From assembly GCA_044229845.1 (NCBI GenBank), contig JBGASG010000001.1, positions 640,001 to 704,000 on the forward strand: a stretch of DNA of 64,000 nucleotides, in the 5' to 3' direction. Both the position numbers and the translations under genes were made by a program. Shown piece by piece: positions 54,491 through 58,893 of the stretch. This DNA is from Candidatus Obscuribacteraceae bacterium (GTDB lineage: Bacteria > Cyanobacteriota > Vampirovibrionia > Obscuribacterales > Obscuribacteraceae). The notes beneath the pieces were generated by a model that did not search any database, was not told the DNA's origin, and saw nothing but the letters and a program-made list of their open reading frames with translations. Every line of letters starts with the position of its first letter. Within the stretch, counting starts at the first letter, position 1.

Positions 54491-55099
54491 TCACTGGATC
54501 TTGCCTGTCTTGGCTCCCGGCACCATCGATGTATAGCCAATACGTTTGCTCGCTGCTGTTTCCAGGTCAGATATGGAGGCGCCCGATTCGCTCGATTGCA
54601 CTTGCTCCATGTTGTTGTACAACACGTTGAATATTTGCTCCCCTCCGCTGCGAACGCAATCTTGAAAGAGTTCCGCTTTGGAGATAAATCCGTCTTTGTC
54701 CGAGTCGATATCGTTGAAGAGTAAGCTGACTCGGTATGCATCGCCGAAAACACTCTCTTGCACGTCTGAAACGCGATGTGCTTCATTGAGGATTTCGAGA
54801 TCACCGAATTCGACGACGTCCGGATCGCCTGCCGTGGAGGCAATGGACTAGTACTTGGAGTAAAGCGCGCGCACGGTGCTGGGCGGGTCTATTCTCATAA
54901 GCCGAAATGCCGCCAGCGTGTCTCCGGTTTCCTGGCGCGAAAGCGTGCCATCGTCATTGGTGTCAACTGCCGACGCGTGCCTGAGATCGTAAAGTTGAGG
55001 CGGGTACTGGTAAGGGAGCAGCTTCTGGGTGCACTTATCTTAATCCGAGACAGGCGGTGCGAATTCAGACGGAATAAGTAGATTGCGGGTCAGCCTCAC
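54491..55099 (-). pseudogene. EF-hand protein pseudogene with two in-frame stops
   Basis: One frame reads VRLTRNLLIPSEFAPPVSD*DKCTQ...AVDTNDDGTLSRQE...LYSKY*SIAS...NDIDSDKDGFISKAEL...KIQ*; stops at 55040-55042 (TAA) and 54848-54850 (TAG); two canonical EF-hand loops. Confidence 0.65.
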
Positions 55100-55733
55100 C
55101 GAGATCCCACGGCGCAAGTTTCATTTCCCAGAAGCCGTCCAGGCGGCCGCAGGCGACGAACGAGAGATCCAGAGCCGCCGATGCATCCCGGCGCACGCCG
55201 TGAGAAGCGTCGGTTACGCGGACGAACTGCTCGAAGTTGTTATATTTGGCGTTCTGGCTGTCTGGAGGAAACCCGGTCGCCAACAGCGATACAGCCAGCG
55301 ATTTGCTTTGAGAAACCTTGATCTGTTTTTCGTTCAGATAAGCTCCCTTGCCCCGCTCCGCCCAAAACACTTCATCGGAGATCGGATTGTAGACCACGCC
55401 GAAACGCGCCTGACCTTCGACTTCAAAGCCGATGGAAACGCTGAAGAATGGATAGCTGTGGGCGAAATTGGTGGTTCCATCGAGCGGATCTATAAGCCAG
55501 CGCCGCTTTGCGTCCTTGCTCTCCAGTAAGCCGCTCTCCTCAGCCAGGATGTAGTCGTCCGGAAAAGCTTCGCGAATAATCGAGATGACGAGCGCTTCCG
55601 AGGCTTTGTCGACGTCGGTGACCACGTTGAAGGCGCTTTTGTAGTCGATGTTCTTGATGTTGCCGACACCCTTGCGCAGTACTTCGCCAGCCTCCTGGGC
55701 GGCGCGCAACGCGACTTCCTTGACTTTCTCCAC
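55065..55733 (-). CDS. suhB: Inositol monophosphatase (SuhB family), C-terminally truncated; possible pseudogene
   Basis: VTDVD, AEES, WLIDPLDGTTNFAH, ATGFP, RRDASAALDLSFVACGRLDGFWE..LAPWD; the expected continuation (xAAG.LIV.EAGG.V) is missing and replaced by GEADPQSTYSV*. GTG 55733 with AAGGAG SD. Confidence 0.88.
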   Translation of the reverse strand: MEKVKEVALRAAQEAGEVLRKGVGNIKNIDYKSAFNVVTDVDKASEALVISIIREAFPDDYILAEESGLLESKDAKRRWLIDPLDGTTNFAHSYPFFSVSIGFEVEGQARFGVVYNPISDEVFWAERGKGAYLNEKQIKVSQSKSLAVSLLATGFPPDSQNAKYNNFEQFVRVTDASHGVRRDASAALDLSFVACGRLDGFWEMKLAPWDLGEADPQSTYSV

Positions 55734-55812
55734 TGCGGTCTCCTTTTCTTTCGGCCCGGCTATTGTAGCTAAGAGGGGCAATAACAATCGTTTACCAAGC
55801 GCTGCTGCCCGA

Positions 55813-55841
55813 TTGACGGGTCTTGGCCTTGAAAGTAGTGT
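55813..55841 (+). promoter_or_regulatory. Putative sigma70 promoter of the ileS leader
   Basis: TTGACG (55813-55818)-N17-TAGTGT (55836-55841). Confidence 0.6.
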
Positions 55842-55871
55842 TAACCTATTAAAGTGAGCGTCCCCTCTCCG

Positions 55872-55976
55872 ATGAAAACCGTGTCACCAGCAACCCAACC
55901 GAAAGTCCCAAATGTGGGCGCCTCTGGCGCTTTCAGTTTGTTGCTGGGTTCTCAGATAATCATTATTGGCGGCTAA
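55872..55976 (+). CDS. ileS attenuator leader peptide (34 aa, Ile4)
   Basis: MKTVSPATQPKVPNVGASGAFSLLLGSQIIIIGG*; ATA ATC ATT ATT at 55956-55967; below the ORF-track length cut-off; SD weak. Confidence 0.82.
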   Translation: MKTVSPATQPKVPNVGASGAFSLLLGSQIIIIGG

Positions 55977-56004
55977 TCGGCTGGGGCAGCAAGGTTTTTC
56001 CTGC

Positions 56005-56038
56005 ACCAGCGCCTCAGGTCGCTGGTTTTTTGTTTTTT
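56005..56038 (+). terminator. Attenuator terminator upstream of ileS
   Basis: ACCAGCG-cctcaggt-CGCTGGT followed by TTTTTGTTTTTT; its 5' arm also pairs with 55980-55989 (antiterminator). Confidence 0.85.
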
Positions 56039-56061
56039 AGAGCACATGTGGAGTTACCGTA

Positions 56062-58893
56062 ATGAGTGAGAAGCAGTACAGCGTCAATTTGCCGCAGACA
56101 GGCTTTCCAATGAAGGCCAACAGCGCGGTGCGCGAAGTGGAACTGCAAAAGATGTGGGATCACGAGCGCGTCTACGAGAAAGCGCTGGATAACCGCAAAA
56201 AGGGCGACAAGTTCGTGTTGCACGACGGTCCGCCTTACCTGAGCTCGGCGAAGATCCACATCGGCACGGCGCTCAACAAAATATTGAAGGACATCGTCAC
56301 CAAGTACAAGGCCGTCAAGGGCTTTTACGCTCCTTATGTGCCCGGCTATGACAGCCACGGGCTGCCGATCGAAACCGCCGTCTTGAAGGATGTGAAAGGC
56401 GGTCGCCATGCTTTGACTCCGGTCGAACTGCGTAAGCGCTGTCGTGAGTTTGCGCTCAGCAATTTGAAAGGACAGGAAGCCAACTTTAAACGCCTTGGTG
56501 TCTGGGGAGATTGGGAGCACCCGTACATCACGCTCGACCAAAAGTTCGAGGCGACTCAAATCCGTGTGTTCGGCAAAATGGCAGAGCGTGGGTATCTCTA
56601 CAAAGGATTGAAGTCTGTTCAGTGGTGCCCGACCTGCGAAACAGCATTGGCTGAAGCCGAAGTCGAGTACGCAGACCACGTGTCTGATTCGATCTACGTC
56701 AAGTTTTCGGTCGCCGATGACTCGCGGGATAAGCTGCCGCCGGAGGTGAAAAACGAAAAGGATGTGTCGTTCGTGATCTGGACGACTACTCCGTGGACAC
56801 TGCCGGCTAATCTAGGCGTGGCATTGCATCCTGATTTTGTCTACGAGTTTTTGAAAGCTCCGACCGGCGAAGTCGTGGTGGTGACTGAGGCTTTGAAAGA
56901 AGCCTTCCTCAAGGAAGTCGGTTGGGATGCCGCGCAGACAAAGGTTCTTGCCACTCGCAAAGGCAAAGAACTCGAACTTATGAACACACGGCATCCATTT
57001 ATAGACCGCAACAGCCTGGTCATGGTTGGTGAACACGTAACCGCCGAGACCGGTACCGGTGTTGTGCACACCGCTCCCGGCCACGGTCCTGAGGACTTTG
57101 AGTTGGGCGCGAAGTACAAGGTCGGCGTTCTCAATCCGCTCGATGGACGTGGTGTCTTCACCGAAGAAGGCGGCAAGTTCCAGGGGTTGCGGTACGACAA
57201 GGCCAACCCGGAAGTTGTGGCGCACTTGAAAGAACTAGGAAAGCTGCTCAAGCACTCAACCTACTCGCACAGCTATCCGCACTGCTGGCGGTGCAAGAAA
57301 CCGCTCGTCTTTCGCGCGACGGAACAATGGTTTGCGTCGGTCGACGGATTTAGAGATAATGCGTTGCGCGCAATCGATGCTGTGCAATGGTTGCCGGCGT
57401 CTGGTCGCAACCGCATATTCGCCATGGTCGAAAATCGCTCCGACTGGTGCATCAGCCGCCAGCGCGCCTGGGGCGTACCGATACCGGTGTTCTACTGCAA
57501 TCAGTGCAATAAACCGGTCTACACGCCGGAGACGGTCGAACGCATCGCCTCAGTCTTCGAAAAAGAAGGCTCCGACAGTTGGTGGGAGCGCGAACCCGAG
57601 CACTTCCTCGGCAAAGGATTCAAGTGTCCGCACGATGGCGGCACCGAATTCACGCGCGAGACGGACATCATGGATGTCTGGTTCGACTCGGGAACCACGT
57701 GGGCATCCGTCATCGACGGACGTCCGGAGTTGCTCGGCTCTCCCTGCGAGATGTATCTCGAAGGCAGCGACCAGCACCGCGGATGGTTCCAGTCATCCCT
57801 TCTGACCAGCGTCGCCGTACATGAGCGGGCACCATACAAGACCGTGCTCACGCATGGTTTCGTCGTGGATGAAACCGGACGCAAGATGTCCAAATCAATG
57901 GGCAATGTCGTCGAGCCTGATGAAGTGATCAAGCAGTACGGCGCCGATGTACTGCGTCTCTGGGTGGCTTCTGTCAACTACACCGATGACATACCGATCG
58001 GCAAAAACATGCTGGCTCAGCTGGCCGAGGTATATCGCAAATTACGCAACACTGCACGCTATCTTCTGGGTAACCTGCACGACTTCGACCATGCAACCGA
58101 TGCGGTCCCTTTGGAGAAACTGAAAGGGCTGGACGCGTACATATTGCATCGCCTGCAAGAGGTCGTGAAAGAAGTCACTGAAGACTTCGACCGCTACGAG
58201 TTCTTCAAGTACTACCAGCTGTTACAAAACTTCTGCGTAGTCGATCTGTCCAGCTTTTACTTCGACATCGTCAAAGACAGACTCTACACCTCAGGCAAGA
58301 AAGACGAGAACCGTCGCGCTGTCCAAACAGTATTGAACGAGATACTGCAAGTGTTGGTGCGTCTGCTGGTGCCGGTAACGCCACACCTTGCGGAAGACAT
58401 CTGGCAGCACATACCGTCGCAATTGCGCGGCGTGGAAGCGAGCGTGCTTCTCACAGATTTTCCGAAACCACGAGCGGATCTGATGACTCAAGATCCAGTC
58501 TTCTGGGATGAGTTGATCAAGGTGCGTTTCGTCGTCAACAAAGCGCTGGAGCAAGCCCGCGCCAGCCGGAAGATCGGCAGTTCGCTGGAAGCTCAGGTCA
58601 AACTGAAAGTCGACCAGCCCGATCTGGCGACCAAAGTTTCGTCGCTGGGCGCTGAGTTGCCCGGATTCTTCATCACTTCGCAAGTAGAAGTGTTGCCGGA
58701 GAAGGAACAGCTGCATACCGAAAATGGGCACCTTTCGCACGTCAGCGAAGGCGGTGTCAGTGTACTTGTGCTGCCGGCGACGGGAGCCAAGTGCGCACGG
58801 TGCTGGAAGTTCTCCGACAAGGTCGGCGACGACAAATCCTTCGCCGATCTCTGCGATGTCTGCGCAGCCGTAGTCGGTGCTGAGAAAAAGTAG
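56062..58893 (+). CDS. ileS: Isoleucine--tRNA ligase (type 1)
   Basis: LHDGPPY, HIGT signature variant, WTTTPWTLPAN, GTGVVHTAPGHG, WCISRQR.WG, EGSDQHRGWF, KMSKS, C-terminal CARCW...LCDVC zinc finger. Confidence 0.98.
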   Translation: MSEKQYSVNLPQTGFPMKANSAVREVELQKMWDHERVYEKALDNRKKGDKFVLHDGPPYLSSAKIHIGTALNKILKDIVTKYKAVKGFYAPYVPGYDSHGLPIETAVLKDVKGGRHALTPVELRKRCREFALSNLKGQEANFKRLGVWGDWEHPYITLDQKFEATQIRVFGKMAERGYLYKGLKSVQWCPTCETALAEAEVEYADHVSDSIYVKFSVADDSRDKLPPEVKNEKDVSFVIWTTTPWTLPANLGVALHPDFVYEFLKAPTGEVVVVTEALKEAFLKEVGWDAAQTKVLATRKGKELELMNTRHPFIDRNSLVMVGEHVTAETGTGVVHTAPGHGPEDFELGAKYKVGVLNPLDGRGVFTEEGGKFQGLRYDKANPEVVAHLKELGKLLKHSTYSHSYPHCWRCKKPLVFRATEQWFASVDGFRDNALRAIDAVQWLPASGRNRIFAMVENRSDWCISRQRAWGVPIPVFYCNQCNKPVYTPETVERIASVFEKEGSDSWWEREPEHFLGKGFKCPHDGGTEFTRETDIMDVWFDSGTTWASVIDGRPELLGSPCEMYLEGSDQHRGWFQSSLLTSVAVHERAPYKTVLTHGFVVDETGRKMSKSMGNVVEPDEVIKQYGADVLRLWVASVNYTDDIPIGKNMLAQLAEVYRKLRNTARYLLGNLHDFDHATDAVPLEKLKGLDAYILHRLQEVVKEVTEDFDRYEFFKYYQLLQNFCVVDLSSFYFDIVKDRLYTSGKKDENRRAVQTVLNEILQVLVRLLVPVTPHLAEDIWQHIPSQLRGVEASVLLTDFPKPRADLMTQDPVFWDELIKVRFVVNKALEQARASRKIGSSLEAQVKLKVDQPDLATKVSSLGAELPGFFITSQVEVLPEKEQLHTENGHLSHVSEGGVSVLVLPATGAKCARCWKFSDKVGDDKSFADLCDVCAAVVGAEKK

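Follow-up and report, generated by a model that had tools for sequence, protein, structure and literature searches.

The ileS gene considered here, encoding isoleucine–tRNA ligase (IleRS), lies in a 64,000-nucleotide (nt) stretch of DNA from an uncultured Candidatus Obscuribacteraceae bacterium (contig JBGASG010000001.1, positions 640,001 to 704,000), referred to below as the window. Its product matches the Pfam families tRNA-synt_1 and Anticodon_1 and the NCBIfam model TIGR00392 (967.5 bits, the cut-off being 621.4), and is the single match of IleRS grade in the host genome. Between a predicted promoter and ileS are a short open reading frame (ORF) with a run of Ile codons close to its stop, and two overlapping helices: a putative antiterminator, formed by segments 2 and 3, and an intrinsic terminator, formed by segments 3 and 4 and followed by a T tract (Table 1). 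An earlier interpretation of this DNA, made from the letters alone and called here the sequence-only reading, had described these features as an Ile-sensing leader-peptide attenuator. It had also placed the DNA in a cyanobacteria-related lineage of the Vampirovibrionia type, which is correct. The promoter TTGACG-N17-TAGTGT, the 34-codon ORF with four consecutive Ile codons near its stop, the antiterminator pairing at nine of 10 positions (the exception being a single G/A mismatch) and the terminator with its T tract ahead of the ileS Shine–Dalgarno (SD) motif are all confirmed where that reading had placed them. Comparison with related genomes indicates that positions 55872–56038 probably constitute an Ile-sensing, ribosome-mediated transcription attenuator of ileS.

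Recurrence of the leader upstream of ileS

Regions upstream of ileS were taken from 40 relatives and from 80 public loci; after nine duplicates had been dropped, 46 distinct Obscuribacterales loci were available. A strict detector, requiring at least two Ile codons amongst the last eight of a started ORF, a terminator 8–50 nt past its stop and an antiterminator of 5 or more base pairs (bp) without interruption, is positive in 28 of the 46. Seven further loci (L006, L044, L054, L055, L060, L062 and L050) have both leader and terminator, the antiterminator being interrupted, and with these included 35/46 loci are positive. No leader is present in the other 11 (L005, L010, L012, L020, L021, L047, L052, L074, L078, L082 and L109), of which L021 retains the terminator. 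The strict detector finds nothing in Gastranaerophilales, Vampirovibrionales and other Vampirovibrionia (55 loci), and a looser scan of 60 regions upstream of ileS, taken from the phylum's other families, turns up no short Ile-rich ORF with a terminator.

Background rates are low. Of 4000 segments of 400 nt drawn at random from the host genome, 15 trigger the detector, and none does so when at least three Ile codons are required; dinucleotide shuffles of the 46 regions give 14/1840. Ile is the only amino acid enriched, at 28 of the 46 loci against seven or fewer for any other (Ala and Ser, seven each), and at a threshold of at least three codons the figures are 22 loci for Ile and one or two for Ala and Ser. 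The other two frames of the ATTATT run, which would encode Leu and Tyr, score three loci each, so the frame itself matters.

Codon choice within the run differs from that of the genes around it. Amongst 106 leader Ile codons, 79 are ATT, 21 ATC and six ATA, compared with 192 ATT, 625 ATC and 200 ATA in the portions of ileS coding sequence at these loci; in the long ORFs of the host genome 58% of Ile codons are ATC. The third position is therefore variable, as expected of codons, yet the less-used ATT is favoured. This preference may tune the sensitivity of the run or keep it unstructured. A comparable situation is seen in the leu leader, in which the run also uses a less-favoured codon.

In the relatives, the leader ORFs have 9–34 codons, and their only common feature is an Ile run placed 0–5 codons before the stop. 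ATG is the start codon in 31 of the 34 leaders tabulated, and GTG in L045, L049 and L060. Examples of the encoded peptides are MLVRIIIISS, MPSAPSSSIIIIS, MYTSIIIPT, MFSRAAIIITS, MKDAPRLLGGIIIICL and MSTLLVSAIII. The layout that follows is also regular, with the stop, GCTGG(C) within a few bases, an interval of 15–25 nt, (G)CCAGCG-loop-CGTTGG(C), and a T tract. The three parts recur over about 22 genera.

Two species of the genus illustrate the same pattern at close range. The N-terminal region of IleRS (379 residues) is 99% identical between them, and the leader peptide differs at three residues, the product of eight substitutions in the first 25 leader codons. One further substitution falls in the terminator loop and another turns an A-U pair of the antiterminator into G-U; there are none in the Ile run, the stop, the cores of the arms, the T tract or the promoter hexamers. 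In one subclade (L006, L044, L054, L055, L060 and L062) the leader peptide is conserved as (M/V)KLGNxISxEII(R/T)SK, a motif that can also be written KLGNxISxEIIxSK. The antiterminator register in this subclade is shifted, GGCGxGGG pairing with CCACCGCC. Outside it, leader peptides vary freely across the family.

The distribution was also examined with a covariance model, R1, which was built from an alignment of 34 elements and takes its structure from the terminator. R1 gives a single full-length match in the host genome, at window positions 55950–56037, the next being a terminator-only fragment with an E-value of 0.05. Matches, which in part include the training sequences themselves, are found in 70 of the 104 genomes of the family (amongst those of high quality, in 25 of 38) and represent 22 of its 37 genera, with one match per genome save for two genomes that have a second. 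In all 16 cases in which the position of ileS is known, the match is immediately upstream of it. In a class-wide sample, strong matches are confined to Obscuribacteraceae (20/30). Four weak matches in other families (E-values of 0.001–0.01) were treated as chance; three of these have a known ileS position and are off the ileS contig. As detected by these searches, the predicted Ile leader unit is restricted, amongst the genomes searched, to one family of the Obscuribacterales.

Table 1. Positions of the predicted ileS leader features in the window, and of two sister leaders located elsewhere
Feature	Position	Strand	Remarks
Predicted promoter, -35 TTGACG	55813-55818	+	Read in sequence; family pattern
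-10-like TAGTGT	55836-55841	+	17-nt spacer after -35; 30 nt before leader ATG
Leader ORF, 34 sense codons and TAA, MKTVSPATQPKVPNVGASGAFSLLLGSQIIIIGG	55872-55976 (TAA 55974-55976)	+	ATG at 55872
Four Ile codons ATA ATC ATT ATT, predicted sensing codons	55956-55967	+	Only Ile codons in leader ORF
Segment 2, antiterminator 5' arm GCTGGGGCAG, conserved core GCTGG	55980-55989	+	
Segment 3, antiterminator 3' arm CTGCACCAGC	56001-56010	+	Overlaps terminator 5' arm
Intrinsic terminator hairpin ACCAGCG-loop8-CGCTGGT	56005-56026 (arms 56005-56011, 56020-56026)	+	7 pairs, 5 G-C
Terminator T tract TTTTTGTTTTTT	56027-56038	+	Conserved in alignment
GGAG, SD-like motif of ileS	56050-56053	+	
ileS, isoleucine--tRNA ligase, 943 amino acids	56062-58893	+	Predicted regulated gene
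Leu-rich leader MQSMTQFQLLLGALSLLLNGGALLLSLEN and terminator	L113:1783-1926 = G000 contig 3:192182-192325	-	Gene L113:63-1733 (-)
Tandem aromatic leaders MTTAYFYFWFPEVHLA and MTTQRNWFYGYFFFARGFPG	L112:1014-1332 = G000 contig 1:160813-161131	-	DAHP synthase gene L112:105-1013 (-)

Competing helices and the predicted switch

In the alignment of 34 sequences, 90.4% of cells in the terminator helix are paired, compared with 78.3% in shuffles, and none of 500 shuffles reaches the observed value. Both sides change at seven of the 10 pairs, and control helices slid out of register are 31–50% paired. The antiterminator helix, GCTGGCG with CGCCAGC, is paired in 89% of cells, against 24–62% in slid controls. 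L007 has GCCGGC on both arms, a clean exchange of U-A for C-G, and in L019, L036 and L045 the pairing is kept via G-U.

Folding of the RNA between the stop and the end of segment 3 predicts the 2:3 hairpin in 34/34 elements, with a median of -15.6 kcal/mol, compared with -15.9 kcal/mol for the terminators. Relative to shuffled upstream sequence, the median z-score of this hairpin is -3.4, and 30 of the 34 fall below -2 (the window hairpin at -2.24). The antiterminator sequesters 81% of the terminator arm, as opposed to 52% in shuffles. In the window the two hairpins are closely matched, at -14.1 kcal/mol for the antiterminator (55978–56012) and -13.1 kcal/mol for the terminator, and the antiterminator covers six of the seven bases of the terminator 5' arm.

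The spacing between leader and antiterminator is equally constrained. Measured from its first base, the last Ile codon is a median of 15 nt away from the antiterminator arm (range 7–19); for the first Ile codon the median is 22 nt, and for the stop codon 6 nt (range 3–13). The corresponding window values are 15, 24 and 6 nt. A ribosome shields roughly 12–13 nt, counted 3' from the first base of the codon in its A site. With these spacings, a ribosome stalled at Ile would therefore leave the arm free, and one at the stop codon would bury it.

A mechanism of the following kind is envisaged, in which transcription would be coupled to translation of the leader. When Ile-tRNA(Ile) is ample, the lead ribosome would reach the stop codon and its footprint would cover the GCTGG arm; with this arm masked, segment 3 would pair with segment 4, and RNA polymerase would terminate at the T tract. 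When charged tRNA(Ile) is scarce, the ribosome would stall with an Ile codon in the A site, 15–24 nt before the arm. The free arm could then pair with nascent segment 3, no terminator would form and ileS would be transcribed, and the increased IleRS would restore charging of tRNA(Ile). The core of the sequence-only reading, namely that a leader of Ile codons decides between antiterminator and terminator, is strongly supported as a prediction, because its parts are conserved, Ile alone is enriched, the terminator covaries, the antiterminator is predicted to be stable and the spacing is appropriate.

Several observations weigh against this interpretation or reduce the force of the evidence for it. 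Within 2 kb of the leader, three terminator-like sites are seen and 2.5 are expected from shuffles, so that the window by itself is weak evidence, and the fold of the whole leader is not unusually stable (z-score of -0.75 against shuffles). Covariation in the antiterminator is not significant, with both-side changes at two pairs and 67 of 500 shuffles reaching the score, because the helix is mostly invariant; the predicted antiterminator is supported instead by conserved complementarity and individual exchanges. The alignment of relatives that the sequence-only reading had proposed as a check has borne it out for the Ile run, which is conserved, and for the terminator, which covaries, but not for covariation of the antiterminator or conservation of a further stem, considered below. 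Folding with segments masked, another of its proposed checks, does not reveal a switch. With ribosome footprints masked, equilibrium folding favours the terminator whatever the state, both in the full transcript and in the RNA 3' of the ribosome. This is taken as a sign that the switch would have to be kinetic, as is accepted for the trp attenuator. The related loci are not independent, by kinship, so the counts given above overstate the number of independent events. In addition, by R1 the element is absent from 34 of the 104 family genomes, with whole genera lacking it (0/8 and 0/3), and it is therefore dispensable.

Translation and transcription of the leader raise similar reservations. An SD-like motif precedes six of 34 leaders, compared with 30 of 34 ileS starts, and there is none ahead of the window leader ORF. 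Since the leaders mostly lack an SD, the signs of their translation are confined to frame, start, stop and codon pattern. Pieces of ileS are present in six sludge or bioreactor metatranscriptome runs, and one contig of 154 nt (run X17) spans 55893–56046, and with it the leader, terminator and T tract. These contigs are assembled, have a depth of 2–5, show neither ends nor strand, and come from libraries that can contain DNA; they are therefore a weak sign of leader transcription and occasional read-through. None of the six runs covers 55400–55892, and this missing cover is not evidence of absence. The DNA runs containing the stretch are likewise labelled as sludge, bioreactor and similar metagenomes.

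Sister leaders and alternative explanations

The host genome was scanned for short ATG ORFs with a run of at least three identical residues near the stop, 5–50 nt before one of 894 terminators. Eight ORFs were found by this strict scan, two of which precede a cognate gene, namely ileS and a 2-isopropylmalate-synthase-like (leuA-like) gene with NCBIfam matches below the equivalog cut-offs. The leader of the latter is rich in Leu (Table 1), and its layout is seen in 10 of the 13 family loci: the stop abuts ACAGAGCC, which is followed by GGCTCTGT, a second ACAGAGCC and a T tract. A gene for DAHP synthase is preceded by two leaders in tandem, both of them rich in Phe, Tyr and Trp and both with a terminator of their own. 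These sister attenuators share with the ileS leader a run of cognate codons, the stop, an antiterminator arm directly past the stop and a terminator. They differ from it in their codons and genes and, for the Leu leader, in the arms, which are ACAGAGCC and GGCTCTGT in place of GCTGG and CCAGC.

A scan demanding an antiterminator of 6 bp or more without a break recovers the leuA-like leader as its sole cognate case and is not an inventory; it misses ileS because the antiterminator helix there is 5+4 bp. A relaxed genome-wide scan of short ORFs with an amino-acid bias before terminators gives 313 matches, mostly noise. Amongst 50 filtered candidates, an ORF with the run WWWW (contig 1:4153-4224) was rejected as a trp leader, as it lies inside a frame of 637 codons and the ORF downstream is without a family match. 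A separate site is found on the plus strand of G000 contig 1, around position 402127, where a short ORF encoding MTPPVVVKGAS, a hairpin and a T tract are located 40 nt before an ORF of 570 residues. By its N-terminus the latter resembles polynucleotide phosphorylase, and the site is probably its terminator or leader region.

The sequence-only reading had proposed three overlapping stems with the geometry of the trp and his attenuators, and of these the 2:3 and 3:4 stems are conserved. If stem 1:2 (55941–55955 with 55981–55992) were also functional, the element would be a full four-segment attenuator of the trp/his type, in which this stem would act as a protector or pause hairpin and an untranslated leader would terminate transcription (superattenuation). 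The pairings concerned, TTGCTG/CAGCAA and TCTCAG/CTGGGG, do exist in the window; RNAfold of 55939–55993 forms the former at -11.2 kcal/mol, and one T-A to C-G exchange (55945, 55988) separates the two species of the genus. The same sister species, however, disrupts the neighbouring base of the stem (55946), and segment 2 pairs upstream no better than it does with shuffled leaders. In the window the pairing probability is 0.80 with the natural and 0.80 with the shuffled leaders, 29 of 60 shuffles reaching the observed value; over 34 loci the medians are 0.75 and 0.69, and just four of the 34 stand out. In addition, the leaders of many genera have 9–13 codons, which leaves no room for segment 1. 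A four-segment attenuator is thus improbable, and the predicted element is a two-helix design without a conserved protector stem. It follows that an untranslated leader is predicted to read through, unlike that of trp; protector or pause hairpins are a feature of the enterobacterial type (trp, his and phe) and not of the attenuation mechanism as such.

The design as predicted reads the position of the ribosome and not the amino acid itself, and the leaders, being without an SD, could respond to the efficiency of initiation. Together with the preference for the less-used ATT, this would suit a sensor of general translation or ribosome availability, in which the Ile run would be incidental or no more than a stretch of slow decoding. 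Such a sensor would not be expected to show enrichment of Ile alone ahead of the gene for the sole enzyme that charges tRNA(Ile), nor sister leaders with Leu codons before the leuA-like gene and Phe, Tyr and Trp codons before that for DAHP synthase, which are an amino-acid-specific signature, and we regard it as unlikely, slightly more so than the four-segment attenuator. Still less credible is a constitutive partial terminator or mRNA-stabilizing structure, with the ORF either an untranslated coincidence or a small functional peptide. Consistent with this are the absence of an SD from 28 of 34 leaders and the chance frequency of terminator-like sites in the surrounding 2 kb; yet the start, the frame, the Ile run, the position of the stop and the distance to the arm are kept over 22 genera as the rest of the peptide changes freely, and neither the sequence nor the length of the peptide is conserved, the KLGNxISxEIIxSK subclade being the sole local exception. 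The least plausible alternative is that the AUU/AUC run is read without a ribosome, by tRNA or protein, as in a T-box-like leader or in autoregulation by IleRS. The conserved arm does contain UGG, and ileS is controlled by T-boxes in Firmicutes and Actinobacteria (PMC1262725). Against this, there is no Rfam match, and no T-box at E-values up to 10, the conserved part is about 90 nt long and lacks Stem I or specifier-loop architecture, and the Ile triplets invariably share the reading frame of a start and a nearby stop.

Taken with the sister leaders, the Ile-sensing attenuator may form part of a wider system. On balance we lean slightly towards a regulon of ribosome-mediated attenuation in Obscuribacteraceae, comprising ileS, the leuA-like gene and that for DAHP synthase. 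Its members would follow a two-helix plan without a protector stem; the leaders would be mostly SD-less and sometimes near-leaderless, with sensing codons biased to ATT and an arm about 15 nt past the last of them, and an untranslated leader would read through. The ileS element would have arisen within the family, and would be the first documented for a synthetase gene in Cyanobacteriota/Melainabacteria.

Relation to known leaders and further observations at ileS loci

In Escherichia coli, pheST is controlled by an attenuator with the pheM leader peptide and the full set of 1:2, 2:3 and 3:4 pairings. It shares with the ileS leader a cognate-rich short ORF, a terminator with a competing antiterminator, a synthetase gene downstream and a rise in transcription on stalling. 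It differs in amino acid, gene and lineage and has no sequence relation to the ileS leader, in which stem 1:2 is not conserved and the ORFs are mostly SD-less. The enterobacterial leaders of ilvGMEDA, ilvBN, leu, trp, his and thr precede biosynthetic operons and have a protector or pause hairpin; Rfam includes Leu_leader, Trp_leader, His_leader and Thr_leader. In these, as is predicted for the ileS leader, the position of the ribosome on regulatory codons chooses between antiterminator and terminator. The predicted ileS attenuator is a well-supported new example of the classical leader-peptide attenuators and not a new regulatory principle.

A different device is used by T-box leaders (Rfam RF00230), which, unlike the ileS leader, read uncharged tRNA directly without translation. 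The Rfam search of the window region (55600–56200, E-values up to 10) gives five matches, all below gathering thresholds and all to unrelated small RNA (sRNA) and small nucleolar RNA (snoRNA) models; the best has an E-value of 0.12, to an unrelated sRNA, and the sub-threshold sRNA matches are driven by the terminator. Neither the T-box model nor the amino-acid leader models of Rfam match this region even at these E-values, and no T-box is matched in 20 Vampirovibrionia ileS loci without a visible Ile leader. The ileS T-box leaders of Firmicutes and Actinobacteria nevertheless resemble the ileS leader described here in the gene, in the signal of uncharged tRNA(Ile) and in their terminator/antiterminator or sequestor logic (PMC1262725).

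Leader peptides upstream of synthetase genes have been reported from several lineages. PMC1262725 names pheST as the proteobacterial leader-peptide example, describes trpS and leuS leader peptides in Streptomyces and places T-boxes at actinobacterial ileS. Two other sources report leader peptides before hisS paralogues in bacilli (PMC2965389) and a motif, uORFC-8-2, before cysS in Rhodobacterales (PMC8632094). In Deinococcus deserti, 14 leader peptides are described before synthetase or biosynthesis genes, with leaderless ones before cysS and other synthetase genes (PMC4007540). The cysS leaders of Rhodobacterales and D. deserti were, like the ileS leader, found computationally and are lineage-restricted, with cognate codons and a terminator before a synthetase gene; they differ in the use of Cys and not Ile, and in their unrelated sequences and phyla. 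The leaderless D. deserti examples can be likened to the possibly near-leaderless transcripts of L009, L032, L042 and L044 discussed below. Finally, a figure legend in PMC4117421 lists an 'ileS leader CDS (CCNA_03934)' of Caulobacter crescentus as a negative control. This is a translated short ORF, so that an ileS leader peptide as such has a precedent, from an alphaproteobacterium.

The novelty proposed in the sequence-only reading must be qualified in the light of these reports. Amongst the papers listed, no description of a leader peptide or attenuator was found for Melainabacteria, Vampirovibrionia or Obscuribacter, and, at the level of search listings, none of amino-acid leader-peptide attenuation in cyanobacteria. 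For the lineage, the claim agrees with these listings. For synthetase genes in general it does not hold, since leader peptides are in print for cysS, trpS, leuS, hisS, pheST and Caulobacter ileS. Comparative studies of how synthetase operons of other phyla are attenuated may bear on priority.

If the prediction is correct, classical leader-peptide attenuation extends to the non-photosynthetic sister lineage of cyanobacteria and to ileS. In Gram-positive bacteria ileS is the textbook T-box gene, and matching of IleRS supply to the charging of tRNA(Ile) would thus be achieved by a different RNA device in each lineage. Recurrence over 22 genera with fixed spacing and no stem 1 points to a minimal design, and predicts that loss of the leader start codon raises read-through. 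The 34-codon ORF and its relatives would be best annotated as leader peptides and not as hypothetical proteins, and R1 can serve as a marker in roughly two out of three genomes of the Obscuribacteraceae.

Consensus scanning of the window region picks up the terminator independently. It calls no promoter at the leader, because TAGTGT agrees with TATAAT at just three of six positions; this hexamer is weak against the consensus but fits the family pattern TAnnnT at that spacing. Of 34 related loci, 23 have the arrangement TTGAC(G)-N17/18-TAnnnT 5' of the leader, and the distance from the -10 to the ATG ranges from 5 to 175 nt. In L009, L032, L042 and L044 a -10-like hexamer is situated just 5–10 nt before the leader ATG, and these leaders may be expressed from near-leaderless or leaderless transcripts.

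Eleven loci from other classes of Cyanobacteriota (L115, L118, L119, L122-L124, L133, L157 and L168-L170) have a coding region directly 5' of ileS, ending in ...PDIPEFL..., with a terminator between it and ileS and no leader ORF. This coding region is presumably ftsZ, an assignment made from the C-terminal motif without a family search.

In the window, the gene 5' of the leader (55065–55787) is on the opposite strand and is a member of the inositol monophosphatase family. Positions 55781–55795 are occupied by a conserved 15-mer, at a fixed distance of 16–17 nt upstream of the -35 element TTGAC of the ileS promoter; its form in the family is ATAAGAATCATTAAC and in the window ATAACAATCGTTTAC. 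With up to three mismatches it is found in 20 of 46 loci, compared with 9 of 2300 shuffles, and it is present also in loci without an Ile leader. It bears what we take to be a resemblance to a Fur-type box, and may be a candidate regulator site for ileS or for the divergent inositol-monophosphatase-family gene.

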